A DNA stretch of 60,397 nt, from the IMG/VR virus record IMGVR_UViG_3300038560_000015, positions 1 through 60,397 of that record. One strand, given 5' to 3'. This document shows, one piece after another, positions 3,439 through 28,093 of the stretch. Each line of letters starts with the position of its first letter. Within the stretch, counting starts at the first letter, position 1. Position numbers and translations under genes: made by a program. The DNA is from a virus (taxonomy: Duplodnaviria; Caudoviricetes). The notes below the pieces were generated by a model. The model was given only the letters and a program-made list of their open reading frames with translations. It did no database searches and was not told the DNA's origin.

Positions 3439-3633
3439 CGATCATGACCCGGCTCGCGCGCCTCTGGCGCAACATCAAACGCATTTTCGTCGATCCGCAT
3501 TCGAACGAACGGGAATGGTGATTGCCATGGGCCACACTGCTGTCGCGCTCTCGCTGATCGTCGGCGTTGCTATCGCCCTCGTCGCGGTTTCGCCCTACAT
3601 CGCCGGCACCGTGCTGATCATCGGGTGGCCGTC

Positions 3634-3825
3634 ATGAGTGTGGGCCTTGCAGACCGGAGGTTGATCGAAGAGTTCGTTTTGGAGGAACTCGACGCCCTTG
3701 AAAATGCCGGCGACGAATTCGCCTGCCTTGACGACAACGATTGCGACAGCCCCAGCGGTCATCTGTTCAAGACGTCGTGCGGTGAGACGAAGTGCCGATA
3801 TTGCGGCTTGGTGGTATGGTCATGA
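3634..3825 (+). CDS. Small Cys-rich hypothetical protein
   Basis: ATGA coupling; CRYC motif. Confidence 0.5.
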   Translation: MSVGLADRRLIEEFVLEELDALENAGDEFACLDDNDCDSPSGHLFKTSCGETKCRYCGLVVWS

Positions 3826-4106
3826 GCGACGGCTCGGGCATTCCTCTCGATCGCGATGCCGTCGCCATGTTGGCCAAGGAGCTACTTGAAGACGTCCGCG
3901 ATCACTACCTTCGCCGTCCGACCTCCCGCGCCACAGCTCAAGAGGTCTTGAACGCGCTGGCCATCAATGTCGCCATGATCGTGGCCGCGGCCCGCGCGTG
4001 CGGCGATGAAGATGGCGCCCGCCAGTTTTTTGACGACGCGCTCGAAGCGCAGCTCGACGAGGCCAACCCAACGACGCTCGGCGAGCTTGAGCGAGTTGTG
4101 CGATGA
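3822..4106 (+). CDS. Hypothetical protein
   Basis: ATGA overlaps at both ends. Confidence 0.6.
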   Translation: MSDGSGIPLDRDAVAMLAKELLEDVRDHYLRRPTSRATAQEVLNALAINVAMIVAAARACGDEDGARQFFDDALEAQLDEANPTTLGELERVVR

Positions 4107-4963: not shown

Positions 4964-5178
4964 GCGCGGCCCGGCACCATTGGCGCATGAGCGCGCGAGG
5001 CGACGCCGACGGCAAGTGCCTGTTCTTCGGCTGTCCGTGCGGGTTTTCGGTGCTGCAGGCATCCGGCGCCGAGGCGTTTCACGAGCCCTTCATCCGCGCC
5101 GTCAACGATCATCTGCGCCAGATCGCGCTTGAGAATACCGAACGACCCGGCGCGCACCTGAAACTCGCGAGAGGATGA
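4960..5178 (+). CDS. Hypothetical protein
   Basis: ATGA-coupled ORF. Confidence 0.5.
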   Translation: MSAARHHWRMSARGDADGKCLFFGCPCGFSVLQASGAEAFHEPFIRAVNDHLRQIALENTERPGAHLKLARG

Positions 5179-5447
5179 AATTGTCTGTTCTGTTGCGTTT
5201 GCGTCAGCAAATAATCCAGTCGGCAGGATGCCGGCGCAGCAATGAGATCAGCGTGGAGTTACAGTTCCATATCAGAGAGATTTGCCCGGTGTGCCATAAG
5301 CCAAGCGTGCGGCTGGCGACCATCGAGCCACACCCGACGCGGGATGACATCGCGCTGCATAACTTCAATTGCCTCGACTGCGGGCCCGTTAGGACGAGGG
5401 AACTCTCGTTGCGACCGAGGGCCGCGGTAATGGAGAGCGCCGCTTGA
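5175..5447 (+). CDS. Zinc-ribbon hypothetical protein (start may be GTG near 5253)
   Basis: CPVC...CLDCG. Confidence 0.55.
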   Translation: MKLSVLLRLRQQIIQSAGCRRSNEISVELQFHIREICPVCHKPSVRLATIEPHPTRDDIALHNFNCLDCGPVRTRELSLRPRAAVMESAA

Positions 5448-5647: not shown

Positions 5648-6048
5648 CCGTCGCCGTCTATACCATTGCCGAGGCGGCTGCGGTGCTCCGCAAAACCCCT
5701 CGATGGCTTGTCAACTGGCTGCGGGATAACCCGGTCGACGCGACCGGAACGCCGTTCTACACTCCGGCCGGCCGCACCAAGACATTCGACGATAGCGAGC
5801 TGTTCCGGATCCGTGTGGCGATGCGTGAGGCAGAGCAATGCCGCTTAAGATCATCACGTCCCGCAACAAGAAAACGAAAAACCTCTATATCCGCGGCTCG
5901 TACCTCGGAGTCCGAGTGGACCAAAGCTGCAAGACTGGCAAACGATCCGTCGCTGGCGGAATTCTCAAGCGGCTCGAAGCCAGCATCGAAAGAGGCGAGT
6001 ACCCACCGCGTGAAGCTGGAACTCGTAGCGACGAACCGACATTCTTGA
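5644..6048 (+). CDS. Excisionase-like HTH protein overlapping the int start
   Basis: YTIAEAAAVLRKTPRWL...KTFDDSEL; immediately upstream of int. Confidence 0.65.
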   Translation: MTVAVYTIAEAAAVLRKTPRWLVNWLRDNPVDATGTPFYTPAGRTKTFDDSELFRIRVAMREAEQCRLRSSRPATRKRKTSISAARTSESEWTKAARLANDPSLAEFSSGSKPASKEASTHRVKLELVATNRHS

Positions 6049-6881
6049 CCGCGGCAAACGCCTACATGGAAGCCGGAAGGCCGGCGCGCTACGTCGCGCC
6101 GCTGATCAAACATTTTGGCGAGACGCCAATCGCCGCGATCGATCAGGCCGCGATCGATGCCGCAGCCGTCGCCTTAGTGCCGAACGGCACGCCGATGAAC
6201 CGGACGCGGCTGGTCTACACGCCCGTCTCGGCGATCATGCACCACGCCGGCGACAAGCGGCCGATCAAGCGGCCGAAGGGTTTCCAGGGCCGCACGATCA
6301 CCGACTGGATCGTGCCGGAGGACGCGTTCGGCATCATAGCCGGCGCCGACACGTTCGATCCCGAATTCGGCACGCTCCTGTGCTTCCTACTCTACACTGG
6401 GCCGCGGATCAGCGCCGCGCTCAGCCAGCAGCGCGAGGATTTCAGGCTCGATGACGGCCGTGCGTGGGCGCGCAACCAAAAGGGCCAGCCGCACATGGAC
6501 ATCCGCTTACGCGCCGACCTCTGTGATCGCTTTAGAGCGCTGCTGGCGAGCCATGACCGCCATCGCGTGTTTCGGTGGCACTACGGCGCGCACCTCGCCC
6601 ACTTGCTCACGCGCGCCAAGCTGGCCTATCTGGGCATTGAGTGTCCCGTGCGCCGGCCGATCGGATGGCGGCAGCCGCCCAACCGTCTTAAGTGGGTGAC
6701 TTTCCACATCTGGCGCCATACTTGGGCGACTTGGATGCGGCATACAGGTGTTGACGTGAAGGGTCTCGTCGCCACCGGAAACTGGCGCTCGGAGAAAGCG
6801 GCATCACGCTACGCCCATGCCGTGGCGCGCCAGGAGTGGGATCACGTCGAGAAGCTGCCGGGGATGAAGGTGAAGGCATGA
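5838..6881 (+). CDS. int: Tyrosine integrase
   Basis: Catalytic set: GPRISAAL (R), KG, HIWRHTWATW (HxxR), GNW, RYAH (Y). Confidence 0.92.
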   Translation: MPLKIITSRNKKTKNLYIRGSYLGVRVDQSCKTGKRSVAGGILKRLEASIERGEYPPREAGTRSDEPTFLTAANAYMEAGRPARYVAPLIKHFGETPIAAIDQAAIDAAAVALVPNGTPMNRTRLVYTPVSAIMHHAGDKRPIKRPKGFQGRTITDWIVPEDAFGIIAGADTFDPEFGTLLCFLLYTGPRISAALSQQREDFRLDDGRAWARNQKGQPHMDIRLRADLCDRFRALLASHDRHRVFRWHYGAHLAHLLTRAKLAYLGIECPVRRPIGWRQPPNRLKWVTFHIWRHTWATWMRHTGVDVKGLVATGNWRSEKAASRYAHAVARQEWDHVEKLPGMKVKA

Positions 6882-7264: not shown

Positions 7265-8113
7265 CATGCTTATCCGGTTGACGCATACAGGTCGAAAATG
7301 ACACCACATCTAGTGTTCCCTTCATGGTCTACCTGTAGAGTTGAGCGCGAGTTCCAGCGTCTCGACCGGCCGGGCGCGCGCGGGCCGGTCAACGAAAAGG
7401 TCGGGGCGCGCCAGCGCGTCACTGATGCGTCGGCGCGCCAAATCGAACCACTTTTGGTCGATCTCAATTCCAGTGAACCGGCGGCCCGCCTGAACGGCGG
7501 CAACCCCGGTCGTGCCCGAACCACAGAACGGGTCGAGGATGGTTTCACCGGGTTCCGAAAACGCCGCGACCCACTGGCCTACCAAGCCGAGCGGCTTTTG
7601 CGTGGGGTGTTCGCCCTGTTCGATAGGGCAATGCCAAACGGCATGGTGACCGCCGTTATTCCATCGCTTTTTGCCCTCGCGATGCAAAATAGCGATGGCT
7701 TCCCAGCCTGTTCCGGGGCGATCCACAGTAAACTGCGGCGCGCCGTTCGGCTTAATCCACACGCCAAGGCGCACCAGGGGCACGCCAGCGGCCTCAAGGC
7801 TCGCGGCGTGCCGCCACTCGCACGTCATGACGACCCAGCGATTGGCGGCCTCTACAAAGGCACGGCAGAGCCCCGCCAAATCTTCGCTTGTGATGCTCGG
7901 AAAGTCGATTGTCGTCCGGTCGAGCGAGTTTGCGGAGCGCGCGCCAGCATGAGTCACGTCGCCATAAGGCGGGTCCGTCATGATGACATCCGCGCGCGGG
8001 AGCGTAGGCAGAATCTCGCGGCAATCCCCCATATATATAGTGATGCCTTCCGCCAAAGTTTCCGTGCGCGTCGTCAACATCTAGTACCTGTATGCGTCAA
8101 CCGGATAAGCATG
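7265..8113. mobile_element. Non-autonomous insertion cassette (probably IS1595-family-derived) carrying a DNA methyltransferase
   Basis: Perfect 28-bp TIRs CATGCTTATCCGGTTGACGCATACAGGT (7265-7292, 8086-8113); 8-bp TSD TCTGAAAT (7257-7264, 8114-8121); no transposase; family assignment is inference. Confidence 0.9.
7322..8080 (-). CDS. N6A/N4C DNA methyltransferase, beta class
   Basis: GDC, TDPPY, HPTQKP, ILDPFCGSGTT, GIEID. Confidence 0.93.
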   Translation of the reverse strand: MLTTRTETLAEGITIYMGDCREILPTLPRADVIMTDPPYGDVTHAGARSANSLDRTTIDFPSITSEDLAGLCRAFVEAANRWVVMTCEWRHAASLEAAGVPLVRLGVWIKPNGAPQFTVDRPGTGWEAIAILHREGKKRWNNGGHHAVWHCPIEQGEHPTQKPLGLVGQWVAAFSEPGETILDPFCGSGTTGVAAVQAGRRFTGIEIDQKWFDLARRRISDALARPDLFVDRPARARPVETLELALNSTGRP

Positions 8114-14056: not shown

Positions 14057-14392
14057 TCATGGGGCTGCCCCACAATTGGCGTCGTGCCAGCCGTCGGCCT
14101 TTAACAGAGGCGCGCTACATAGGATGGCGGTTTGCCGTCGCGTCGCATTTTGCATGGCCGCCAGGTCTCTTCGGCGGAAGGCATCAAGCCATTCGTCCGC
14201 GATCTTGTTGAACTCGCCAAAGGCGTCCATTTGCTCGTCAAAAGCTTTCCGATCGAAGTCGCCTGCCGTCGGCGCTGGAGGCGCTACAGACCGCATATTC
14301 GAGATAACTAACGGCATCGCGACAAGCACAACAAATTCTGCGCCCAGGGCGATCACGCCCGTCAAGAGAAGCAGCTTGCGCAGCATCGTCAT
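14057..14392 (-). CDS. Membrane-anchored hypothetical protein
   Basis: N-terminal TM segment; ATGA coupling. Confidence 0.55.
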   Translation of the reverse strand: MTMLRKLLLLTGVIALGAEFVVLVAMPLVISNMRSVAPPAPTAGDFDRKAFDEQMDAFGEFNKIADEWLDAFRRRDLAAMQNATRRQTAILCSAPLLKADGWHDANCGAAP

Positions 14393-14895
14393 CGCGGCAC
14401 CGCCGCGATCACCCTCGCCCGTACCCGCGGATCGGCGGCATAGCCGATATGGCCGTAGCTCGAGGGAATGTGCACGTTCTTCGCCCCGCGCATTTCGAAG
14501 CCTTGGCCCCAGAAGCAGATGCAGTCGACGCCCGGGCCGCAGCTCGCGCCCGTGAACAGCGGATCGATGCCGATCACCTTGACGCTATAGCCGCGGCGCT
14601 TGAGATCGGTGCCGACGTCGCCAGCAGCCTTGGCGCCCATCGAGTGGCCGATCAGCACAATGCGGTCATGCGGATGGCCGAGCGCGTCGCGCTCGAAGGC
14701 CGCGGCATCGCTCCAATCGCCGACACCGATGGTGCGGCCGCGGCCGTGAAGCCGGGCGCCGATCTGATCCATGGCGTCGGACAGCAGCAAGCCGCCGAGC
14801 CCGCGCATCAGATAGATGCGCGTTGCCGCATGCGCGGACGCGGTCATGCCGGCGGCAATGAGCATCGCCGCCGCGCTGGCGCGAAGCGTTTTCAT
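14389..14895 (-). CDS. Secreted alpha/beta-hydrolase-fold protein
   Basis: Signal peptide ending AHA; GHSMG nucleophile elbow; IDP; GH. Confidence 0.75.
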   Translation of the reverse strand: MKTLRASAAAMLIAAGMTASAHAATRIYLMRGLGGLLLSDAMDQIGARLHGRGRTIGVGDWSDAAAFERDALGHPHDRIVLIGHSMGAKAAGDVGTDLKRRGYSVKVIGIDPLFTGASCGPGVDCICFWGQGFEMRGAKNVHIPSSYGHIGYAADPRVRARVIAAVPR

Positions 14896-15002
14896 TTCTG
14901 CCAGGCACAATGTTCGTGCGCCGTTGCCTGGCACGCCAGATCGACGATGGCGCAGCCAGACAGCGACAGGCACAGGATCGCGAGCGCGAAGATGCGTTTC
15001 AT
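14892..15002 (-). CDS. 36-aa lipoprotein
   Basis: MKRIFALAILCLSLSGC lipobox; stop overlaps the next ATG. Confidence 0.6.
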   Translation of the reverse strand: MKRIFALAILCLSLSGCAIVDLACQATAHEHCAWQK

Positions 15003-15699: not shown

Positions 15700-16083
15700 T
15701 CATTCAGCGTCCAGGACCGCAGCAAATAAATCGTCGGCCGCGACCATGACGATGATTTCATAGATAAGATCGTCGACCTTGAGCTTCCGCGCGGCCGCGG
15801 CGGCTTCAAGCGTGGCCCTGGTTTTCGGCGGAAAGGTCGGCTTTGATTTCGGTAGGGCTCCGTCCATCAGTCTTTGATATCGCTTACGGAGATCGTCCAG
15901 TTCGTTGCACAGGACTTTGATGCGGCTCGCGTCGGCGCTGGTCTCGCCATTGATGCCTAGCTCGACAATATCGGCAACGATCTCGACCGGCTCGCGCTTG
16001 CGTTCGCTCGCGAGTTTGAGCAGCCGTTCGGCGAGCGGGCCGCGAAAGGTCGTGATCGTCTCGATTTCCAAAGTCTCAGCCAT
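15700..16083 (-). CDS. Hypothetical protein with two ribbon-helix-helix-like segments
   Basis: LAERLLKLASERKREPVEIVADIV and ATLEAAAAARKLKVDDLIYEII. Confidence 0.5.
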   Translation of the reverse strand: MAETLEIETITTFRGPLAERLLKLASERKREPVEIVADIVELGINGETSADASRIKVLCNELDDLRKRYQRLMDGALPKSKPTFPPKTRATLEAAAAARKLKVDDLIYEIIVMVAADDLFAAVLDAE

Positions 16084-16853
16084 CATAAAAACCAATGCGC
16101 GACCTTGGCCCAGAAGCCTTCGCTGATGCCGGGGTCGACGTGGCCGCCGAGATCAGCTTCGGGAGGCTGAACCGCTTGTGCGATGATCTCGCCGCGCCAC
16201 ACCTTGGCGAGCTGATCGCGCGTGCCGTTGAACAGCGACAGGTCGGCGCTGGCCTGCAGGCCGTCGAGCGTGTGCGGCTGGTTGCCGACGCCGTCGCCGG
16301 TGAACTGCCAGAGGAACGGTGCCGGCCATGGCAGCGGCTTGCCGTTGGCGTCGACCATCTTGCATTCCGGACCATATTCCGGAATCCACGGCGCGTGATC
16401 GGCGAGGAAGTCCCGCTGCGCATCCGTCGCGCCGACGATGAGCGACTTGATCCAGTCGCCGCTATAGAGCGTGGTGGCGCGCCCGAAGGCCTGGTCGACG
16501 CGATCGAGGAATTCGATCGCGCCGGAAAGCGTCATCTGCGCGCCTTCGGGATTGCGTTCGAAGTCGAGCGCGCGCAGCAAATTCGGAATATCCGGCGACG
16601 TCGCCTTGATGAAGCGCGCGGCCTGGATCGCGGCGGTCTCGCCGGTATTGAAGGCATAGGCGCCGGGCAGCAATCCCGCAGCGATGATCTGCGGCAGCCG
16701 CGTTCCGTAGGCGACGTCGACCGCGCCGTTCGATCGCGTGGCGCGATGAATGACGCCGGCGCATTTGATGCCGTTGTAGCTCGCCGCCGCCAGCTTCTTG
16801 AAATCGACGGTATTGAGCGAGCCCAGATCGGCGACATAACAAAGATCGGTCAT
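16083..16853 (-). CDS. Endolysin, glycoside hydrolase family 25
   Basis: GVIHRAT, GAYAF, ALDFE (DxE), LYSG, LWQFTG, DLS. Confidence 0.88.
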   Translation of the reverse strand: MTDLCYVADLGSLNTVDFKKLAAASYNGIKCAGVIHRATRSNGAVDVAYGTRLPQIIAAGLLPGAYAFNTGETAAIQAARFIKATSPDIPNLLRALDFERNPEGAQMTLSGAIEFLDRVDQAFGRATTLYSGDWIKSLIVGATDAQRDFLADHAPWIPEYGPECKMVDANGKPLPWPAPFLWQFTGDGVGNQPHTLDGLQASADLSLFNGTRDQLAKVWRGEIIAQAVQPPEADLGGHVDPGISEGFWAKVAHWFL

Positions 16854-18019: not shown

Positions 18020-18427
18020 TCATGCGCCCGCTCCCGGCAGAAAGCACCTGATTTGCGTCACACCCTGATAGTCCTGATACGGCCACACCACGGCGGGACC
18101 GAACTTGTTCGGCTCCGTCACCACCGCATCCGGCGGCACATTGATCCATTGCTTGTTGAGCCGGACCCGATAGGTGGCGTTGCCCTTGTCGTCTTTCGGC
18201 CCGTTGGTGTCCCAATCGACATCCTCGATCGAGACGCCGTCCGCGAACGAACAACAGAGCCCCTTCCCTGACGCGAGCTGATCGAACCAAGCGTGCAGTT
18301 TGGGATCTTGCGCGGCGAAGTGACCATCGTCATGCGCGATAGCGGCGCGGGCGAAGAACGCCAGGAAGCCCAGCACCACGATGATGCCAGCCGTGAAGGC
18401 GAGCGTGAGAGCGCGGCGGGTCGTCAC
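18020..18427 (-). CDS. Secreted Cys-containing hypothetical protein
   Basis: Signal peptide ending AIA; WFDQL...CCSFADG...CFLPG. Confidence 0.7.
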   Translation of the reverse strand: MTTRRALTLAFTAGIIVVLGFLAFFARAAIAHDDGHFAAQDPKLHAWFDQLASGKGLCCSFADGVSIEDVDWDTNGPKDDKGNATYRVRLNKQWINVPPDAVVTEPNKFGPAVVWPYQDYQGVTQIRCFLPGAGA

Positions 18428-18428
18428 G

Positions 18429-19097
18429 TCACGGCTCGCGGAAGGCGATGGCGCCGGCCAGCGACCGCGGTCGCTCCCGAACCGCATGGCCGTCGTTGCC
18501 CGACAGCACGATCCACCGGCCGCGATCTTGTCCGACAATCCGGCCGACATGGTGCGGCCAGACGACAAGGGCGCCGACATGCGGCGACGTTGGACGTCCA
18601 TAATGCGCCCAATTGCGCGCGAGGTTATAGGAGCGGTCCGACACGCCGAGCAGATGGCGCATGTAGCAGCCGCACCACGGAATGCCGCGACAATCGCTTG
18701 GCCGGTAGCCGATGACGCGCGAGACGCCTTCGACGACATGCGAGGTCATGCCGACCGCGACGTTCTCAGCGGTATCGATCGCGCCCTGCGCGGCGCCAAA
18801 GGCCATTGAAAACGGCCCCGGCTCGAACGGTGTGAAGGCGGCATCGAGCGCGATGCGAGGCTGCGCAAATTTGCGCAGCCGATACGCGGCATAGCGATGA
18901 CCGCTCCGGCGGTGGGCAACGTAATGCCTCTCATGAACCGGCTGCTCATTCCGCCGCACCGATCGCAGCATGTGGATCAGGCCATGGCCGATCCCTTGCA
19001 CCATCGGATTGCCCGGATGGCGGACATGAGCTTGCGCCGGACCGGCGAAGATCGCCGCGAAAACGCAAAAGATCAGCGTCGAGACGAACGCTCGCAT
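18429..19097 (-). CDS. Secreted CHAP-like cysteine peptidase
   Basis: Signal peptide ending AQA; WCG...NLARNWAHYG...HHVG...SGND. Confidence 0.75.
   Translation of the reverse strand: MRAFVSTLIFCVFAAIFAGPAQAHVRHPGNPMVQGIGHGLIHMLRSVRRNEQPVHERHYVAHRRSGHRYAAYRLRKFAQPRIALDAAFTPFEPGPFSMAFGAAQGAIDTAENVAVGMTSHVVEGVSRVIGYRPSDCRGIPWCGCYMRHLLGVSDRSYNLARNWAHYGRPTSPHVGALVVWPHHVGRIVGQDRGRWIVLSGNDGHAVRERPRSLAGAIAFREP
18859..18880. repeat. Dispersed palindrome, 22-bp perfect copy
   Basis: GGCTGCGCAAATTTGCGCAGCC. Confidence 0.9.
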
Positions 19098-19205: not shown

Positions 19206-19403
19206 ATGACTGACGTCATCGAAGACCTGATCGAGCTAGCCAGAAAGCATTCCGGTGCCCAAAGTCTCGTTGAAGGGCTAAATCGCGCGATCGTGGAGAT
19301 TAGAGGGTCACGCGCAATGCTCGGAGACGTTCGCCGCAGCCTCGGCGTCGACGCCAAGGACCCAAAGCCGCCCGGCTTTCGCGGCGATTATTCGGACGCC
19401 TAG
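19206..19403 (+). CDS. Small counter-oriented hypothetical protein (moron-like)
   Basis: AAGGA RBS and AT-rich leader. Confidence 0.55.
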   Translation: MTDVIEDLIELARKHSGAQSLVEGLNRAIVEIRGSRAMLGDVRRSLGVDAKDPKPPGFRGDYSDA

Positions 19404-21040
19404 CCTACCGACCTCAACTTGCCGTCATCGTTCGCCGGCGTTTCGAGCCAGCTCGTGATTTCTTCAAGCAGGAAAGCAGCCGTCGGCGTGCAGGTGAACG
19501 TGCCGTTGGAGCATGTGACCGAATAAGTCGTCGATGATGTAGTCGCAGGATTATCCAGAATCCCAAATCCAAAGGGAAGATCGAGCGTGCCAGAAACTGG
19601 GTAGTTACCGCTGGAGTCCTGCGTCGCAATCGATGTTGATCCGCGCTTTAAGGTAGAGAGATTTGTATAGACCCCAGCGGATGAGCTATTGGTCCCCGCG
19701 TTATAGCCGGTGGCGATGACATGAACGAGATCAGTCGCATCGAACGGCGTGATCGAGGCGCCCATGCCGCTGTTGCCCGCCGGCTCGCCGGGCTTGTGAA
19801 CGCCAGGGCCGAATAATCGCACGGCCGTAATGCCGGTCCAGCCGGTCCCCGACGTCCACGTCGCCTCGATATAACCGAGACGGCGGACCGCCTTGGCACT
19901 CACGGCCGAGATATTGCAGTAGAGGTTCTGCGCGTTTGCGCCGCCGCCGGTGCCAGACTGGCTCGTCTGGTTGAGCGTCTCGTTAAGATCGAGGATATTG
20001 TTGCCGCTCACAGTATTGTAGACGCAGACCCCGAGCGTGCCTCCGTTATTGATCTCCCACACCCACAGCTTGCACAGCACGCCGGTGGCGCAGCCAAAGG
20101 AATCCGACGTCGCGCCGGTCGTGAAGCTCTGCGCCGCCTGCAGCGATACGATGACCGGATCGCCGTAGTAAAGATTGGCGGGGTCGGGGAACGAGAACAG
20201 GATCGGATTGGTCGAGGAGGCGTTGTTGCAGGTGTTGCTGCCGGAATTGGTGGTGCAGACCGCAACCGTCAATTCATCGGACGCGATCGAGGCGTTGAGT
20301 TGCAGATTGGTCGGCACCGTGAAGGCGAGCGCGGAATTGCCGAGCGCCGACGCGCCGATATTGAGGCCGACGGTGGAGAGGGCCGAGCCGTTGCCTTTGA
20401 GATAGCTGACGGGATACCAATTCGCCCCGGCATAAGCGAAGATGCCGATATCGGTTGCCGCGGTTGTATAATCAGCAAACGTCGGCGGATAAATATTGCC
20501 GCTGTTGGTCAGCGGCGTCGCCGAGTTGAACAGCACGATCTTGATCGACCCGACAGCACAATTCGTGCCGAACGAATTAATCGTTGTCGTTCCAGTAATC
20601 TGGACGAACGAGACGACGGTCGAGCCGGTGGTAGAGGGGCAAAGATTTGTCGTTGAGGCCGCCGTCAGGGAACCGACCTCGCCGCCGCCGAGGATCGGCA
20701 CCCAGATATGATTAACAATATCAAGATAGGCGACAGGCAGCCAATCCGTGCCGTCATAGATGTTGTAGGTATTCGGCGTGGTCGACGTATTGATCCAGCA
20801 ATTGCCGAGAGATGGCACGCCCGACAACTGATTGGTCGGCGCACTCGCACCGGAATTGCAGGTGTTGAGGCTGTCGAGCGCGGAATTATAATTGTTGGTG
20901 AGCGAAAGGCCGCTGACCGAGCCCGTGGTTGGCGACAGCAACGCATTCTGCGATGCCCGCGCCATATCGAGCGCCGGGCTGAATACAGTGAAGGCATAGA
21001 CGACAATAGCCGTCAGGCACGCCGTGAAGCGTCGCAGCAT
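19400..21040 (-). CDS. Tail-fibre-like protein with N-terminal signal peptide
   Basis: Ser/Thr/Gly-rich; N-domain NSG.SAP...W.NT...YDGTDW shared with 22770-23759. Confidence 0.7.
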   Translation of the reverse strand: MLRRFTACLTAIVVYAFTVFSPALDMARASQNALLSPTTGSVSGLSLTNNYNSALDSLNTCNSGASAPTNQLSGVPSLGNCWINTSTTPNTYNIYDGTDWLPVAYLDIVNHIWVPILGGGEVGSLTAASTTNLCPSTTGSTVVSFVQITGTTTINSFGTNCAVGSIKIVLFNSATPLTNSGNIYPPTFADYTTAATDIGIFAYAGANWYPVSYLKGNGSALSTVGLNIGASALGNSALAFTVPTNLQLNASIASDELTVAVCTTNSGSNTCNNASSTNPILFSFPDPANLYYGDPVIVSLQAAQSFTTGATSDSFGCATGVLCKLWVWEINNGGTLGVCVYNTVSGNNILDLNETLNQTSQSGTGGGANAQNLYCNISAVSAKAVRRLGYIEATWTSGTGWTGITAVRLFGPGVHKPGEPAGNSGMGASITPFDATDLVHVIATGYNAGTNSSSAGVYTNLSTLKRGSTSIATQDSSGNYPVSGTLDLPFGFGILDNPATTSSTTYSVTCSNGTFTCTPTAAFLLEEITSWLETPANDDGKLRSVG

Positions 21041-21080
21041 GGCAACCCCGTCGAGTGTCAGGAGGAAAGAGGGAGGAGTC

Positions 21081-21566
21081 TTACGAACGGCGATATTTGC
21101 CGATGAAGATCGTCACGTAGCCCTTGGCGCTCGGACCTTTTTTGATCGGCGGATCGAGCACGCCATTCGTCGCACTGCGAAGAGCGCCGATCGCCGTTTG
21201 CGCGGCGACCAAGTCGTCGCCGTTGACCTGCACATAGGCGCCGTAACCGAGGGGCCCGAGCGCGCGATCGAGCACGCTGTCGACGCCGGCTTGTTCGCAG
21301 GCATCGTCGATGTCGGCGGCGAGGTCGGAACAACCGGCATCGTTGCAAACGATGTCGAACTTGATGCCCTTCGGCAGCGTCTTGAGCACGGCGGCGAGTG
21401 CCACCTTTTGCGGATCGGTCAGATCGGGCCACGCATGCTTCGACGCATAGACGGTGGCCGCAACCTGCTCGATCTTCGGTGCCTTGAGCGTGACCGCACC
21501 GCCGGCAATCGCCGTTGCAATCGCTGCGGATAGCGCGTGATGCTTGACCATAGGATGTAACGGCAT
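21081..21566 (-). CDS. Hypothetical protein with hydrophobic N-terminus
   Basis: 161-aa ORF in the tail region. Confidence 0.6.
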   Translation of the reverse strand: MPLHPMVKHHALSAAIATAIAGGAVTLKAPKIEQVAATVYASKHAWPDLTDPQKVALAAVLKTLPKGIKFDIVCNDAGCSDLAADIDDACEQAGVDSVLDRALGPLGYGAYVQVNGDDLVAAQTAIGALRSATNGVLDPPIKKGPSAKGYVTIFIGKYRRS

Positions 21567-21569
21567 GAG

Positions 21570-21836
21570 CTAGACCTTCGGCTTGAGGGCTTCGATATCT
21601 TTAACGACGCTGTCGAGCGCGCCGGGCAGGTGCGCGGCAAACTTCGCGGCTTTCGGATCGCGGGTGCGTAATTTCAGGCCGCCGAGCACGTCGCCGACTT
21701 CGGTTCTCAGATCCGCGATCACCGCACCGACCAACGACGGATTTTGCATAAGCATATGCCGCGCCACGACCTCGGCAAAAATGCCGCGCACCAAGAGATC
21801 GGCCATGCTTGATTTTTCGCTGACGTCGCGCGGCAT
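21570..21836 (-). CDS. Hypothetical protein
   Basis: GAGG RBS. Confidence 0.5.
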   Translation of the reverse strand: MPRDVSEKSSMADLLVRGIFAEVVARHMLMQNPSLVGAVIADLRTEVGDVLGGLKLRTRDPKAAKFAAHLPGALDSVVKDIEALKPKV

Positions 21837-21858
21837 GCTTTGACCTCGAAAAAGTGTG

Positions 21859-22770
21859 TTAGCCGGTGTAACTGCCGGACGCGGTGAATTCCATGATCGT
21901 GTTCGACCCGCTGGTCGTCACTGTCGGCGATCCAGTCGTTGTGCCGCTATAATGCGCGGTCGGGACTGAAATAAAGACGACACCTTTGCCGCCGGCGCCG
22001 CTGCTGCCGGTATAACTGCCGCCGCCGCCCGCGCCGGTATTTGCTGTGCCGGCAGTCGCATTCCCGCTTGCCCCGGCGCCGCCGCCGCCAGTACCGCCGC
22101 TGCCCGGGGTAGTCGCGCTGGAGCCTCCGCCGCCGCCGGCATAAGTTACTGCACTGCCGGTGATGCTGGAGGAGAAACCATTCCCGCCGGTGCCCCCGAC
22201 GCCAGAGGCTGCATTCCCGCCAACGGCCCCCGCACCGCCGCCACCGCCGGCGCCGTTAGAGGCAGCACTGCCACCGGCATTGGCATCGCCGCCGGTGCAA
22301 GAGGAAGAACCGCCGGAGCCGGTGTTACCGCTGTTCTGGCCGCCACCGCCGCCGGAACCCCCACTGCCGCCATTCGTGCCGCTGGAAGCGTTCAGCCCGG
22401 GACCGCCAAAGCCACCTCCGGGCGCCGTGACCGTCGTGATACCCGAACCGGAGATGCTGGAGGAGCTGCCGGGATTCCCGGCAATTCCGGTTCCCGACAC
22501 ACTCGTTCCGCCAGGGCCGACGGTGACCGTGTACGTCGTACCTAGAACGGCAGTGAACGTGCTTGGGATAACGCAGCCCGCACCGCCGCCGCCCGCGCCG
22601 CCCTGTGTGCCGCTGCTGCCAGTGCCGCCGCTGGCGCCGCCGCCGATGACAAGATCGGTCGCGGTATAGCTGGTCGGCGACGTCGTCGGGTAGCGCCCGC
22701 TCGACGGAAACGCCCCGATCAGAAATCCGGCAAGAGCGACAATAAGCGCCGGAGCAAAAAGCCGGCGCAT
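21859..22770 (-). CDS. Glycine-rich-domain tail protein with signal peptide
   Basis: LVIGGGASGG...YTVTVGPGG...YAGGGGG...NTGAGGGG...GGKGVVFI. Confidence 0.8.
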   Translation of the reverse strand: MRRLFAPALIVALAGFLIGAFPSSGRYPTTSPTSYTATDLVIGGGASGGTGSSGTQGGAGGGGAGCVIPSTFTAVLGTTYTVTVGPGGTSVSGTGIAGNPGSSSSISGSGITTVTAPGGGFGGPGLNASSGTNGGSGGSGGGGGQNSGNTGSGGSSSCTGGDANAGGSAASNGAGGGGGAGAVGGNAASGVGGTGGNGFSSSITGSAVTYAGGGGGSSATTPGSGGTGGGGAGASGNATAGTANTGAGGGGSYTGSSGAGGKGVVFISVPTAHYSGTTTGSPTVTTSGSNTIMEFTASGSYTG

Positions 22771-23759
22771 CAGTTGATGCTCCACTGCGAGCCGGTGTAG
22801 GTGACCGAGACGCTCTGGTAGTTCGTGCTCATGACGTAGGTCGATGCGCCGTCGATGTTCCCTGAGTTCGGCGTGATCGTGATGCTATGGGTTGCCGCGG
22901 TCCCACCGCAGTCCTTGATCAGATAAGTGTCGCCGGTTGCCGGGCTTGCCGGCAGATTTTCAGTAGCCGCACCGCCGGAATTATCCGCGCAGACGAAGTA
23001 GTCCGTCGTCGCGCTGATGCTGTCGGTCGTACCCGTCGCGGTCCGCGACGCCACCTTGATGTGACCGGTGGCGTTGAGCGGCGTGAACGATCCCGCCGCC
23101 GGCGTGGTGCCGCCGATCGCGGGAGGCGATGCCGAATTCTGCGTCGCGAAGGTGCCAAGGCCGAGATTGGTCCGCGCGGTCGAAGCCGATGCCAGATCGG
23201 AAAGGTTGCTCGCCTCGGCGAGCGCGCCGATATTGTTCGCGGCCGTCGCCCCGGCAGAGGTGGCCCCGGTGCCGCCATTGCCAACGCCGAGCGTACTGGT
23301 GACGCCGCCGTTGCCGCTCGAGGAAAGACTGATCGCCGGAATATCGGCGCCGACCAGCGCCCGAAACGTCGGCGCCGCGGCGCTCCCCGACGACGGTCCG
23401 GCGAAGATCGTATTCGCGCTCGCCGTCGTGCCCCAAACCGGCGTCCATAAGAACGACGAGGTATTGAGCGTGCCGAACTCGACCCAGTGCGTGCCGTCAG
23501 GCGTATAGCTGAACACCCACGGATTCGATGTGGTGTTGATCCAGCACTCGCCGGCGAACGCGGCACCGCCGGTGCCGTTGGCCGGCGCGGCATTGCCCGC
23601 ATTGCACGATCCGATCGACAAGAACGCCGAGTTCAAGAATGACGCCAGCGTCGTCATCGGCAGCGGCGCACTCGGCGTCACCAGGCTCGACTGCGATGCC
23701 GCGCACGGCAGCACGGCCGCGAGCAACACCCATGTCGATATCAGCAGCCGCTTGAGCAT
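22770..23759 (-). CDS. Tail-fibre-like protein with signal peptide
   Basis: NLSDLASASTARTNLGLG fibre motif; C-terminal LPASPATGDTYLIKD...IDG domain. Confidence 0.75.
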   Translation of the reverse strand: MLKRLLISTWVLLAAVLPCAASQSSLVTPSAPLPMTTLASFLNSAFLSIGSCNAGNAAPANGTGGAAFAGECWINTTSNPWVFSYTPDGTHWVEFGTLNTSSFLWTPVWGTTASANTIFAGPSSGSAAAPTFRALVGADIPAISLSSSGNGGVTSTLGVGNGGTGATSAGATAANNIGALAEASNLSDLASASTARTNLGLGTFATQNSASPPAIGGTTPAAGSFTPLNATGHIKVASRTATGTTDSISATTDYFVCADNSGGAATENLPASPATGDTYLIKDCGGTAATHSITITPNSGNIDGASTYVMSTNYQSVSVTYTGSQWSIN

Positions 23760-26700
23760 CAGAAGCCCTCTGCGAACAGCGTGAGTTGCCGCGATACCAT
23801 CGCGCCGGAATTCCATACCGCAAACGTCACCGCCGAATTCGACAGCGCACTGATGATCAGATCGTCGCCGGCCTGGGCATTGGTGATGCCCCACGACATC
23901 GCCGGGAAGCCGCCGGGCGCCGAGCCGCCGTTGAACGGCGACGATGTTCCGGTCAGCGGCGCCGTCGAGGTGACGCCGGCCTGCCCGAAGGTGACCGTGG
24001 TCGCGGCCGATGCCGATGTGGTCAGCGGATACTGATCGATGCGCGGCGGGATCGTCGCGGTGATGGCGAATTCGAGGTTATAGCCCTCGGTATTCGGGTC
24101 CATCGTTTCGAGGAAGAACGCGAAGTTGAGGAACTGCGCCTGATAGGTGCCCGGTGCGAACTTCTGATAGGCACCCCAATTCGCCGCGGTGACATCGTAG
24201 AGGTCGGTGTACTGATAGAGGTCGCCGAGCGTGTAGAGATCGCCTTCCCCGGTTGCCGTCTCGATCAGCGGATATCCCGTCACGAAGGCCGCCGATGCCG
24301 AGCCCAAGATATCCGGCGTCTCGAGGATGTTGGCGATCGTCAGGATATCCTGCCCGACCGGCACACCGGTCGGCTGGTATTTGATCGAGATCGAGACGTT
24401 GGCGACATAGCCGACGTCGATGGTTGCACCCGACGGGAAATAGGTGCCGCCCGTCGTGCTTTCGCCACCATAGTTGAGGACATCGGCGACCGAGAAAACG
24501 ATCTCATCGCCGCTCGATACTCCCGGGCTCGCGACATTGCCCGAGAGCGTGACAGTGGCACCCGTGAGCGTCGCCGTGCTCGATTCGACTAGCGTTCCGC
24601 TGGGAATCGCGGACGGATTCGTCGTGTCGTTGACAGCCAATCCTGCGGCGACGCCGGGGAGGAAACTGATGATAAAGTTGGAATAGTTAGCCGAACCGGA
24701 ACCGCCGGTCGGTGCGAAGGTCTGCGCGGTCGAGGCGGCCTTATAACCAGTAAATATACCACGCGCCGTTCCGTAGTTGACGGGACCGGTAGACCACCCG
24801 GCGGGCTCGACAAGATTATCCGCGCCGCTCGTCAGCACGCTCATGTTTGCCATGAGCAGGCCAACCGTCAGCTCGTTGGTCGCGGCGGGGCTTCCGCCCG
24901 TGACGGTGGGCGAAGCACCGTTCGCCGAATTGATCGCCGTTACTGCGGCGTCGATTACAGTTCCGGAAGAAACCCCGGTGACATAGAACGCGACCAGCGT
25001 CATGTCGCCATTCACCTGCGGCGGCAGAGCGCTTTCATAGGTGATGGTCGATCCGGCCGGAAGGTCTTCCGACGCCGTCGCGGTCCAGACAGTGCACAGC
25101 GGATTTGATGATCCGCCTATCTGAGCGTGAGCGATCCCGGTATAGCCGTTGGTGCCGTCGCTGACGGTGCCGTAAGTTGTCCAGAACTGGCCGTTCGTGT
25201 TCGCATCGATCGTGCCGACGCAGATCGTCGCGCCTTTAGGAACAGTGGCGGTCGTTGTCAGGCTGACGCTGGTCGTCGTTCCACCTGCATTCGGCGCGGC
25301 CGCGCTGCCGAGGCTGGTGAATGCGGGAACCGGAAACGACGCAAAGCTCAGAACATTGCCGCCGGCGCTCGTTCCGGCATTGGTCGCCAGCTCTTCGAGG
25401 AACGGCGACGCCGCCAGAATATCGCCCGCGCCTCCCGTACGCAGCGCATTGAGCGTGGTATCGACGCCGATCGAGCCGGCGAACGTCCCCGGCCATTTCT
25501 CGGCCGCGAGATCGATCGTGAAGATCACATTCTGCGTGATCACCGCGCCGGCGATGGTGACGCTCTGCGGTTCCTCCGAATAGACCGACAGTCCCGATGT
25601 GGGTTGTGCGAAGGCCGATACCCAATAGGTGCCGTTACCCGGCACGGTAAACGGTGAAACGGCATCCGATGACAGTGTCGCGCCGGCCGCCCATGACGCG
25701 CCGACCCTTACCTCATAGGACGGACTACGGAAGTCGCTGACGTCGTCCCAGATGAGCTGCTCGAAGCCCGTGTTGACATTGAACACGGTGCGCAGGTTGG
25801 TGACGTTCGGCAAAGGCGATGCTAGCGCCGCGCCGGTGATGGTGTACGGATAGGCGGCACATTCCGATAGTTCCTGGACTCCGCCTTGATACTGATTGAA
25901 GCCCTGGAACTTGATATAGATCGTCGAACCGATCTGGTTCTGGTTGTAGGCGTATTTGAAGATGTTGCTGGCGAGCCATGCGAATGGCGTACCTACCGGA
26001 TGATCGACGATCTCGCTTTCGGTGCCGAACGCGCCCCGCACCAGATAGGTCAGATCGTAATTGTAGGGCGACGTCAGCGTCGCATCTTCATAGGACGCAA
26101 TCTCGCCGCCGACGTAGCACGCCATCGCCAGTGACAGCGCATCGTTGAGCGTACCGGATATTAGTGTGCCTTCGCTCTCCGACAGATTGACCGCGAGCGT
26201 ATTGGTCTGATCGATGGTCTGCCCGGTCGGATTGACCGAAACTGCCGGGAAATCCGCCGTGGTGACGCCCATCGTCGCCGCGCCGAGGATCTGGCCGGCC
26301 TTGGTGTAATTCTCGCCGTCAGTCGATATCCAGACGTTGCAGCCGCCCCAAGTGGCAGTATCTGCGCCGGACACCGCCGCCCACACTTCCAAGCCGCCGC
26401 CGAGCTCGTCAGTCGGCTCGAAGATGATCGGCGGATTGGCGTTGCCCGGCGAGCCGTTGAAGTTCGGCACAAACCCGGAATTGGCCTGGATGTTGTAGAG
26501 CGGCGCCGTCGCGGTGCCTAAGAATTCCTCCGCGGTGAACATAAGCGAGAAGTCTTCGTTCTCCTGAATCTCGGTAATCCGCACCGCCTGGTTGACGATG
26601 CCTTGGCCCGGATCGGAGACCTCGACGATGTCCATCACGTCGAGCAGGATGAATTGCTTGCCTGACGTCCACTGGAACGTGCGCGCGATCTGCTCGCGCG

Positions 26701-28093
26701 CTAGCCGCAGCGTCGCGCTCTGCTGCGCCGCGGCGGCGAGACAGAAGAAATCGTATTGCTTGGCGGTGTCGGCGCGCCAGCGGCCGAAGGCCTGCAGCGC
26801 GGCCTCGTTCTTCGCCTCGATGGTGACCGGATTATAGGAGTTGTTGCGGTCAAGATAAGTCAGCTTGACCACGTTGAGCATCTGATCGCGGGGCTTGCGC
26901 ACCACGATCAAAGGCGAATTGTTGATGGCGACGCCCTGCCCAATCGTTCCCTGGTTGGGCAGGAAATTGTCGAGCGTCAGCGCATAGACCGGCGTGACGT
27001 TCGGCGTGTAGGAGGCGACCTCGGCATAGGTATAGGTGATCGAAACCTGATTGCCAGCATCAGCAGAATTGAACAGATAATATCCCGGCGCCGGGCTGAT
27101 ACCGGGACCGCCGCCGATATTGTACTGCCCTGGCCCCGGCAGCGCCGACCCGTAGACCTGGGTCAGGGGGTTGCCGCTCGTCGTGTAGACGACCTGCGTG
27201 TTGGCGACGAACTGTGCCGCAAACTCGACTTCTATCTGATCGTAGGAGCCGCTGCCGACGCCGACCAGATATTCTTCGGTCGACGGCGTGATCGTTCCCG
27301 CCGTGATTTGCTGATCGCCATAGGGAATGACCGACAGCAGCCCGGCCGACCACCGCGCGTTCGAGTTCGTCGCCTCGATCAGATCCTTAGCGAATGATGA
27401 TGCCGTGACTGCGGACGCCAGAACCGGCGACACCACCATGCCTGTCGCGAGGCAATACTGCTGGTACGCCGTCAGGCTTCCCATCCGATACGACGGAAAG
27501 CCGAGCCCGCGCAGCGGGTCGGTGAAGAACTTGGTCCAGCATACCGACGGATCGCCGTCAGGCTGGCCGGCGAGGACTCCGGAATTGGTCGAGAGGAATT
27601 CCAGGTTGATCTGCGGCAGGCCGGCCGACGAGCCGAGCGGATAATTGAAGAAATCGGCGTGCGCCAGTCCGCGGTAGTAATTGACGACGCCGATCGCTGA
27701 GCCATCCGGCCAGACGTCCTGCGCATAGGTGCCCAGGAACACATCCTGCGGGATTGGCTGTTCGCTTTGCAGATACTGCGTGCCGTTGACCCATGTCGCG
27801 ACCAGCTCGGATAGATCGGGGCCTTCACACGCCGCGAGCATGAACGAGGCATAATACTGATAGCCGTTGCCGGCCGAGCCGCCGGAGAACAAACCTTTGC
27901 CGCCCGACGATGAACTGGCATTGACGGCATAGAACGAGCCATACCAGATCAGGTTACCGGGTAGCCTCTGCTGTCCCCCCAACAGCCATGGGATCGGCAC
28001 GCCTTGCAGCGACGTGGTGACGCGCAGCGCCGCAGCCGGCTGCTGTGTCTGTTTGCCACGGCCGCCGAATAGCCCGGTTAAGTATGAGCCCAT
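23759..28093 (-). CDS. Central tail tip / host-specificity protein (J-like)
   Basis: 1444 aa after NlpC/P60; G.PIP...GNLIWYG; YLDRNNSYN; LTYLVRGAFGT. Confidence 0.85.
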   Translation of the reverse strand: MGSYLTGLFGGRGKQTQQPAAALRVTTSLQGVPIPWLLGGQQRLPGNLIWYGSFYAVNASSSSGGKGLFSGGSAGNGYQYYASFMLAACEGPDLSELVATWVNGTQYLQSEQPIPQDVFLGTYAQDVWPDGSAIGVVNYYRGLAHADFFNYPLGSSAGLPQINLEFLSTNSGVLAGQPDGDPSVCWTKFFTDPLRGLGFPSYRMGSLTAYQQYCLATGMVVSPVLASAVTASSFAKDLIEATNSNARWSAGLLSVIPYGDQQITAGTITPSTEEYLVGVGSGSYDQIEVEFAAQFVANTQVVYTTSGNPLTQVYGSALPGPGQYNIGGGPGISPAPGYYLFNSADAGNQVSITYTYAEVASYTPNVTPVYALTLDNFLPNQGTIGQGVAINNSPLIVVRKPRDQMLNVVKLTYLDRNNSYNPVTIEAKNEAALQAFGRWRADTAKQYDFFCLAAAAQQSATLRLAREQIARTFQWTSGKQFILLDVMDIVEVSDPGQGIVNQAVRITEIQENEDFSLMFTAEEFLGTATAPLYNIQANSGFVPNFNGSPGNANPPIIFEPTDELGGGLEVWAAVSGADTATWGGCNVWISTDGENYTKAGQILGAATMGVTTADFPAVSVNPTGQTIDQTNTLAVNLSESEGTLISGTLNDALSLAMACYVGGEIASYEDATLTSPYNYDLTYLVRGAFGTESEIVDHPVGTPFAWLASNIFKYAYNQNQIGSTIYIKFQGFNQYQGGVQELSECAAYPYTITGAALASPLPNVTNLRTVFNVNTGFEQLIWDDVSDFRSPSYEVRVGASWAAGATLSSDAVSPFTVPGNGTYWVSAFAQPTSGLSVYSEEPQSVTIAGAVITQNVIFTIDLAAEKWPGTFAGSIGVDTTLNALRTGGAGDILAASPFLEELATNAGTSAGGNVLSFASFPVPAFTSLGSAAAPNAGGTTTSVSLTTTATVPKGATICVGTIDANTNGQFWTTYGTVSDGTNGYTGIAHAQIGGSSNPLCTVWTATASEDLPAGSTITYESALPPQVNGDMTLVAFYVTGVSSGTVIDAAVTAINSANGASPTVTGGSPAATNELTVGLLMANMSVLTSGADNLVEPAGWSTGPVNYGTARGIFTGYKAASTAQTFAPTGGSGSANYSNFIISFLPGVAAGLAVNDTTNPSAIPSGTLVESSTATLTGATVTLSGNVASPGVSSGDEIVFSVADVLNYGGESTTGGTYFPSGATIDVGYVANVSISIKYQPTGVPVGQDILTIANILETPDILGSASAAFVTGYPLIETATGEGDLYTLGDLYQYTDLYDVTAANWGAYQKFAPGTYQAQFLNFAFFLETMDPNTEGYNLEFAITATIPPRIDQYPLTTSASAATTVTFGQAGVTSTAPLTGTSSPFNGGSAPGGFPAMSWGITNAQAGDDLIISALSNSAVTFAVWNSGAMVSRQLTLFAEGF

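Follow-up and report, generated by a model that had tools for sequence, protein, structure and literature searches.

The 60,397 bases of the IMG/VR virus record IMGVR_UViG_3300038560_000015 (hereafter the window, that is, the whole stretch of DNA analysed) constitute a complete temperate siphophage, in which two genes downstream of the gene for the J-like central tail-tip protein encode proteins, here called pA and pC, that probably carry Sec signal peptides of the signal peptidase I (SPase I) type, as judged from their sequences, which show a positively charged n-region, an uncharged hydrophobic core and small or neutral residues at -3 and -1. Both proteins are best explained as side tail fibres of a siphophage tail tip resembling those of lambda and the gene transfer agents (GTA). 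Export and periplasmic maturation of pA and pC are strongly supported by the comparisons, and we assign a probability of about 0.58 to the full mechanism, in which Sec-exported, cleaved and disulfide-bonded side fibres join the tail at or after lysis. We infer the export, the cleavage and the disulfide bonds from several kinds of comparison; that the fibres join the tail is the fate best backed, as a structural model, and the timing of this step, at or after lysis, is speculative. The genes concerned, with lengths in amino acids (aa), are the following.

23759-28093, minus strand: J-like or megatron-like central tail-tip protein (J), 1444 aa (Pfam Phage-tail_3, E 1.9e-16; Rcc01698_C, E 1.2e-16)
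22770-23759, minus strand: pA, putative fibre protein of 329 aa (phrog_972, E 5.7e-08)
23697-23759, minus strand: putative leader of pA, residues 1-21
23439-23696, minus strand: N-domain of pA, residues 22-107, followed by a shaft and a C-terminal part
21859-22770, minus strand: pB, 303 aa, with a Gly_rich_2 domain behind a hydrophobic N-terminus
22711-22770, minus strand: hydrophobic N-terminus of pB, residues 1-20
19400-21040, minus strand: pC, putative fibre protein of 546 aa (profile, paralogy and AlphaFold2 (AF2) model)
20954-21040, minus strand: putative leader of pC, residues 1-29
20696-20953, minus strand: N-domain of pC, residues 30-115

A preliminary description of this DNA had quoted three leader-like N-termini, and all are present on the minus strand as quoted: MLKRLL in pA (from 23759), MRRLF in pB (from 22770) and MLRRFT in pC (from 21040). 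Its account of the starts also holds, since those of pA and pB overlap the preceding stop codon as TGATG, and the residue preceding Ser-Gln is Ala, hence no start codon is found there. Shine-Dalgarno-like motifs (GAGGG, GGAG and GGGG) are located 5-9 nt 5' of all three starts, and translation of pA and of pB is coupled to that of the gene before each. The N-termini of pA and pC are paralogous, as had been claimed (31% identity over 119 residues, E 5e-14). The statement that three such genes come after the tail-tip protein was right in that all lie downstream of J, but they are not consecutive, as open reading frames (ORFs) of 88 and 161 aa separate pB from pC. A scan found no intergenic promoter or terminator standing out around pA-pC, and the idea of a moron with its own promoter and terminator was rejected on this ground.

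Judged by a crude signal-peptide rule set, five of the six genes from pA through the CHAP-like gene pass, pA and pC among them, versus two of the 16 upstream head, tail and packaging proteins; this difference, together with the family-wide occurrence of the leader described below, is more than chance would give. Among three other downstream genes, a GH25 lysozyme and a 194-aa ORF fail the rule and a membrane-type ORF of 111 aa passes it. The signals of the Tat pathway have a twin arginine in the n-region as their consensus; Arg-Arg is seen there in pB (MRRLF) and pC (MLRRF), and most relatives are without it.

The two proteins share an N-terminal domain of ~87 residues (N-domain), for which no Pfam model match was obtained. 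Word-index searches recovered 23 relatives of pA and 92 of pC, the window's own protein being counted in each, and a profile built from 14 mature domains matched 2511 representative proteins at E <= 1e-3 (735 at E <= 1e-10), with pC scoring E 8.9e-44 and pA E 4.0e-35; the family census drew on the best 150 of these 2511 matches. A homologue survey, proposed in the preliminary description as a check on leader conservation, found a leader in 209 of the 227 family members that were classified: it is 19-44 residues long, has the n-h-c organization of signal peptides and ends in A-x-A before a near-invariant Ser-Gln. Eleven of the 238 proteins collected were left out of this classification: the N-terminus of seven was truncated, chimeric or ambiguous, three repeat proteins matched only in part, and in P0027 the match starts at profile position 49. 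Two proteins, P0023 and P0118, have an odd N-terminus resembling a cold-shock-protein motif fused to the middle of the N-domain; they may be assembly chimeras or recombinants and do not enter the counts.

The anatomy of the leader was tabulated for the first 119 proteins, of which 112 carry 19-44 residues in front of the mature domain (median 24), three are leaderless and four were set aside (two truncated at the N-terminus, one with a foreign N-terminus and one with a 9-residue stub). Position -1 of the 112 leaders is occupied by Ala (106), Gly (5) or Pro (1), and position -3 by A (77), S (12), L (10), V (6), G (3), I (2), C (1) or T (1), while Ser is found at +1 in 90 and Gln at +2 in 111. 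The hydrophobic core is preceded by a median of two Lys or Arg residues (none in three leaders), the n-region has a net positive charge in 88 of the 112, and the longest uncharged non-polar run has a median of 17 residues. Mean pairwise identity is 0.18-0.23 in the leader versus 0.585 in the first 18 mature residues (6216 pairs). Such a variable leader in front of a conserved mature end is expected of a signal peptide; of a helix with a structural role in docking, sequence conservation would be expected. A lipoprotein reading, with cleavage by SPase II as in exclusion proteins of the Cor/Llp type, was rejected because Cys is found at +1 in none of the 112 leaders and the Cys of pA is at -3. 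In the AF2 model of pC the leader forms a separate helix over residues 2-19, and confidence dips to ~62 over residues 20-30, the predicted cleavage zone.

The remaining 18 of the 227 family members are leaderless, each with the domain beginning at residue 2-4. Met-Ser-Gln is the opening of most, with Met-Ala-Gln in two and Met-Ala-Ser-Gln in one; the proteins of the Rhizobium phages RHph_TM16 and RHph_I4 begin Met-Thr-Gln, with no in-frame start upstream (loci L002 and L003). The initiator Met is excised before Ser, and most leaderless forms would thus expose the same N-terminus as cleavage after A-x-A before Ser-Gln, which we regard as the strongest single argument for cleavage at this site. 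A FastTree phylogeny of the domain, calculated without the Cys columns, shows at least 13 changes of the leader state, seven of them on supported branches. From these changes, it seems that gain or loss of the leader occurred many times on a single anchor domain.

The conserved Cys residues of the domain, also pointed out in the preliminary description, behave as a pair in leader forms, where both or neither are present and never only one. The pair is found in 145 of 209 leader forms (counting P0001, whose second Cys is one or two positions out of register) and in none of the 18 leaderless forms (Fisher p 2.9e-9); among representatives at 50% identity the counts are 91 of 127 versus 0 of 17 (p 6e-9). 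Leader forms hold either no or two Cys in the domain, never one. Moreover, of the 206 leader forms with at least one Cys in the mature protein, 177 have an even number (binomial p 4e-27), versus 8 of 18 leaderless forms, and the density is 1.51 versus 0.61 Cys per 100 aa. In the window, mature pA has four (residues 52, 72, 257 and 284), pB two and pC 12, the latter in neighbouring twos. Paired and even-numbered Cys confined to leader forms are expected of proteins that are oxidised outside the cytoplasm.

The identity of the family as tail fibres is suggested by gene position, domain composition and predicted structure. In an ORF scan, all 17 leader-bearing domain genes from ten loci lie in a block directly downstream of a J-like ORF, from which at most a few small genes separate them, and mostly two domain genes stand in tandem. 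The ten loci comprise a phage record (L001), four IMG/VR contigs, four genomes from the family of a Xanthobacteraceae metagenome-assembled genome (MAG) and the window; the position holds in all ten loci with a full domain and enough flank, and L010 is a fragment only. A sample of 251 genomes from the family of this MAG yielded six with a match, three of them with two adjacent genes. A search of genome contigs with alignment A2 gave one fragment, in the Xanthobacteraceae MAG itself, and the pC domain alone as query found no relative among the genome contigs.

Among cultured phages (tblastn), the Bradyrhizobium phage ppBdUSDA122-1 has the domain in a tandem pair of genes that immediately follow the tail protein gene. 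Their products, WAX24264.1 (annotated hypothetical) and WAX24263.1 (annotated tail fiber), both have the leader, the N-domain and the Cys pair, and one of the two genes, that annotated as tail fiber, also has a Collar domain. In the Rhizobium phages RHph_TM16, RHph_I4 and vB_RglS_P106B the domain starts a 'tail collar domain-containing protein'; according to the record annotation, its gene begins within the last part of the gene for J or the tail protein. The Collar domain is present in 16 of the 92 pC relatives, and also in the 866-aa protein of ppBdUSDA122-1 and the RHph_TM16 protein; P0001 and P0026 have it. Pfam Collar (PF07484) has no match in pA, pB or pC of the window. The pA relative P0018 has a pectate-lyase-like domain, and the C-terminal part of pA itself resembles proximal fibre subunits of the T4 type (phrog_972, E 5.7e-08). 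The N-domain is constant and the C-termini are mosaic among family members, which is the usual build of tail fibres. An AF2 model of pC residues 1-125, made from a 102-row alignment, has a mean pLDDT of 89 (~95 over residues 31-110), and its N-domain matches the N-termini of tail-collar and tail-fibre models in BFVD, eight of them at E <= 1e-3 and the P106B protein at the top. Against the PDB, Foldseek gave nothing at E <= 1e-3 with the N-domain, and a wide VIA-align search no convincing solved structure (best Z 3.1).

Fibre attachment has been described for the tail tips of roseophage vB_DshS-R4C and the RcGTA particle, where the megatron, homologous to J, terminates in a domain that binds fibres by gripping the N-terminal extension of their trimer (PMC10276861); for R4C the same source describes three megatrons with nine fibre chains (PMC10276861). 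J of the window resembles these systems in its Rcc01698_C domain, and the predicted geometry of the complex described below is the same. Because such a C-terminal fibre-binding domain is known in the megatrons of R4C and RcGTA, J residues 1190-1444 were folded with fibre N-domains. Two parts of J are concerned.

23762-24526, minus strand: C-terminal domain of J, residues 1190-1444, candidate fibre-docking domain (alignability and complex prediction)
24299-24376, minus strand: predicted fibre contact stretch of J, residues 1240-1265 (complex prediction)

The complex consisted of J residues 1190-1444 (9-row alignment A4) and three copies of pC residues 30-125. A predicted complex with the tail-tip protein had been named in the preliminary description as a check, and it was obtained with a score of 0.71 (runs of 0.56, 0.71 and 0.72), versus 0.00 for the best of three controls; the pLDDT of the partners is at least 88. 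Fibre residues 37-49 of all three copies are predicted to contact J residues 1240-1265, a stretch that contains several invariant columns of alignment A4. In this model, which supports docking, three fibre N-termini are placed on the conserved C-terminal domain of J. The score could in part be a memory of solved megatron-fibre complexes, although the fibre N-domain shows no significant likeness to the baseplate chains of R4C (Z 3.1, rmsd 3.8, 67 residues). The window's J can be aligned to distant J proteins, those of ppBdUSDA122-1 and three genomes, only at residues ~755-912 and ~1196-1444, and both stretches are kept in every locus that has this fibre domain. Given these two conserved stretches and the two fibre subtypes at most loci, two docking sites on J are conceivable. 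Residues ~900-1195 of J (~24509-25393) are an insert without counterpart in the close relatives of loci L006 and L008.

Several results weigh against the export and docking of fibres as outlined here. The leader of pB lacks a clean A-x-A, and no relative of its architecture (a leader followed by a glycine-rich domain) was found, a signal-like leader being present in none of 120 listed relatives. The Cys pair is not required, as 64 of the 209 leader forms are without its canonical form (in 29 of these the domain has two Cys at other positions, and in 35 it has no Cys). The raw Cys counts are moreover weakened by relatedness: after correction for kinship there are seven contrasts on supported branches, of which 4.5 go the same way, none the opposite way and 2.5 show no difference, and the sign test is weak (median p 0.06; the contrasts are means over 200 pairings, and the tree is from the 87-residue domain). 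Two of the 16 upstream proteins pass the signal-peptide rule as well, weakly, and the rule set is crude. With regard to docking, 58 of 80 solved complexes and 2 of 110 mismatched pairs attained this score in the calibration of the tool, from which our job differs by its custom alignments and three copies, and the three runs disagree on the contacts (agreement at least 0%). Finally, the long C-terminal half of J could bind the receptor itself, with the side fibres possibly non-essential.

The alternative that survives best, which we nevertheless hold to be rather unlikely, is that pA and pC are exported but never become part of the particle, and instead act, like the secreted adhesins or receptor blockers considered in the preliminary description, as free periplasmic or released proteins that bind receptors or degrade glycans. 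They could, for example, mask or destroy receptors, sparing progeny from loss on debris, or loosen the matrix to ease release. The leader and Cys evidence would fit such proteins equally well, the pectate-lyase-like domain of P0018 would suit them, J has a long distal half of its own, and Lom, Llp and Cor are exported proteins encoded beside fibre genes. We favour fibres of the virion over free proteins because the anchor domain is constrained, with 58% identity just past the site in leader forms, and because the genes are coupled to J without a promoter or terminator of their own standing out between them. The domain also follows J in leaderless phages, a clamp on the C-terminal domain of J is predicted, and ppBdUSDA122-1 has no other fibre-annotated gene in the stretch examined.

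It is improbable that the leader is retained, either as a signal-anchor that tethers the fibre to the inner membrane, on its periplasmic side, until lysis, or as a hydrophobic helix bundle at the fibre base in the virion. Of 112 leaders, 111 have Ala or Gly at -1 and all have a permissive residue at -3, most leaderless relatives begin Met-Ser-Gln at the predicted site, and the predicted contact with J (residues 37-49) lies just past it; the leader sequence is unconserved, which argues against a specific structural contact. These points outweigh, in our view, the absence of a clean A-x-A from pB and the window's 161-aa protein, the confident AF2 helix over residues 2-19 of the pC leader, and the precedent of signal-anchor-release (SAR) domains, which are described as established in phage endolysins (PMC6116005). 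Cytoplasmic folding with a leader unrelated to export, be it a wrong start call or a cytoplasmic assembly element, is very improbable: parts of tailed phages are normally cytoplasmic and a GTG lies five codons past Ser-Gln in pA, but Gln at +2 is upstream of that GTG and found in 111 of 112, the n-h-c pattern is kept in 209 of 227 despite ~20% identity, even Cys numbers in 177 of 206 leader forms and a leader-only Cys pair are unexpected in the cytoplasm, and the leader starts have Shine-Dalgarno-like motifs and TGATG coupling.

Export followed by periplasmic maturation and late attachment, as put forward in the preliminary description, is supported by every comparison made, namely the leader anatomy with its A-x-A site, the variable leaders on a conserved mature domain, the leaderless Met-Ser-Gln forms, the pairing and parity of Cys and the predicted docking on J. 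In this scheme pA and pC would be translated from a late operon, pA and pB by coupling to the upstream gene, and the fibres would be exported unfolded via SecYEG. Signal peptidase I would cut after A-x-A, leaving a mature chain that starts with Ser-Gln, and in the periplasm the mature fibres would fold, probably trimerise and become disulfide-bonded. Tail assembly, including the J-like tip protein, would take place in the cytoplasm, and fibres and tail would meet only when holin and endolysin break the envelope, upon which three mature fibre N-termini would clamp the conserved stretch of the J C-terminal domain. The same export route is probably taken by pB and the 161-aa protein.

Particles of tailed phages are, by textbook accounts, assembled entirely in the cytoplasm. 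Lom of lambda, Llp of T5 and Cor are exported phage proteins encoded next to fibre genes, and the coat proteins of filamentous phages are exported via Sec. The chimeric fibre proteins of Bdellovibrio and XepA of PBSX are reportedly fibre-like or fibre-adjacent and act outside the cytoplasm. None of the Bdellovibrio chimeric fibres, XepA, Lom and Llp is known to be an exported fibre of a tailed virion. Lysis proteins offer another comparison: Lys44 of fOg44, with its cleaved signal peptide, and the SAR endolysins are described as using the host Sec machinery and waiting outside the cytoplasm until lysis (PMC6116005), but in contrast to pA and pC they are lysis enzymes and not parts of the particle. 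We found no description of Sec-exported fibres of tailed phages in open-access papers and bioRxiv full text.

The closest cultured relatives differ from the window in instructive respects. USDA 122 is described as releasing ppBdUSDA122-1 particles that are siphophage-like by transmission electron microscopy (PMC10127595). The fibre proteins of this phage have other C-terminal modules than those of the window, and its J is distant, alignable at residues 755-875 and 1219-1444 of the window's J. As far as searched, two papers on Bradyrhizobium phages, including PMC10127595, refer to neither leaders nor virion proteomics. The Rhizobium phage proteins of RHph_TM16 (QIG66677.1) and RHph_I4 (QIG76098.1) share the N-domain with pC (tblastn E 9e-5 and 2e-6); a profile match was also obtained for this group, and the vB_RglS_P106B protein is the top fold match in BFVD. 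They are like the pC relatives in that the gene overlaps the end of the J or tail gene and a Collar domain is present, and unlike the window in being leaderless, in starting with Met-Thr-Gln and in having no Cys at either position of the pair; their genes are followed by an annotated tail fibre assembly gene.

Downstream of J the gene order is pA, pB, the 88-aa ORF, the 161-aa ORF, pC, the CHAP-like gene and the GH25 lysozyme gene, and the integrase gene lies farther away.

21570-21836, minus strand: 88-aa ORF without leader and without family match
21081-21566, minus strand: 161-aa ORF, possible exported accessory protein (relative in locus L008, E 4.3e-42)
18429-19097, minus strand: 222-aa protein whose leader resembles a signal peptide and whose C-terminal part is weakly CHAP-like (context only)
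16083-16853: GH25 lysozyme, further downstream of the CHAP-like gene
5838-6881, plus strand: tyrosine integrase (Pfam Phage_integrase, E 5.9e-11)

The glycine-rich domain of pB is clearly recognized (Gly_rich_2, PF21722, E 7.6e-16, 59.2 bits versus a curated cut-off of 24.3; phrog_2295, E 1.3e-30) and elsewhere forms the distal part of larger leaderless phage fibres. In 20 viral loci, no match to pB begins before residue 77; the leader is hence uncovered and only the glycine-rich part is common. Two of the 120 listed relatives are flagged by hydrophobicity, neither of them signal-like, and no match to pB was found among cultured phages. No BLASTP match connected pB with P0015, a protein with a glycine-rich end in which Pfam gave nothing. 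In two IMG/VR contigs (L035 and L036), a 548-aa protein ends in the glycine-rich domain of pB (match at 3496-3843 and 5001-5348, respectively), and its first 55 residues look, by eye, like a leaderless and Cys-free N-domain. If this likeness holds, the domain of pB is a normal distal fibre module elsewhere.

A relative of the 88-aa ORF sits between J and the fibre gene in locus L006. The L008 relative of the 161-aa ORF (7367-7897) lies between J and the first fibre gene and has a clear signal-peptide-like leader, while the window's own 161-aa protein contains Cys and has a weaker leader without a clean A-x-A; that it is an exported periplasmic accessory or assembly factor for the fibres is speculation. 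The 222-aa protein passes the leader rule and has sub-threshold or weak matches to Pfam CHAP (E 0.038, under the curated cut-off) and phrog_1259 (E 8e-4), hence it may be a second, Sec-exported wall hydrolase. A promoter-like site (19129-19100) is located just upstream of this CHAP/NlpC-like gene. Further small proteins with leaders or of membrane type are encoded at 14057-14973 and 18020-18421 (both minus strand). The 194-aa ORF is weakly similar to lipases and alpha-beta-hydrolases, and its signal-like stretch is preceded by an upstream extension. The 111-aa ORF has a long hydrophobic N-terminus, and a possible exported ORF of ~130 aa overlaps the end of the CHAP-like gene.

The remainder of the genome agrees with a siphophage. 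The record is rated 100% complete in IMG/VR, and the minus strand encodes a large terminase as well as portal, protease-like and capsid-region proteins; upstream of J it also has genes for a tape measure protein, for tail assembly proteins and for a C40 peptidase; J itself matches a PHROG tail protein (E 3.7e-60). The presence of the integrase indicates that the phage is temperate, and it is taken to be a phage of Bradyrhizobium-type soil bacteria. Between the terminase and portal genes lies a gene for a 470-aa protein (41082-42494, minus strand) with TPR repeats and a marginal match to glycosyltransferase family 9.

The proteins form a tail fibre family with a probable Sec leader, and two-compartment assembly, if confirmed, would be new for tailed phages. 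There is about an even chance that this temperate siphophage lineage builds its particle in two compartments, heads and tails in the cytoplasm and fibres in the periplasm, with holin-triggered collapse of the inner membrane as the last assembly step and with the cytoplasmic and periplasmic routes of fibre production being interchangeable for one docking site. If so, a switch to periplasmic maturation would make disulfide-stabilised fibres possible, and recombinant production of such fibres would need periplasmic expression. A signal peptide would no longer be a reason to call a phage gene a non-structural moron. The family is a good test bed for these ideas, since one anchor domain occurs both in leader-bearing form, in a phage released by a culturable and harmless soybean symbiont, and in leaderless form, in cultured Rhizobium phages. 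For the biology of these phages, the finding would mean that the timing of lysis and the export, signal-peptidase and Dsb functions of the host help to determine infectivity and host range.

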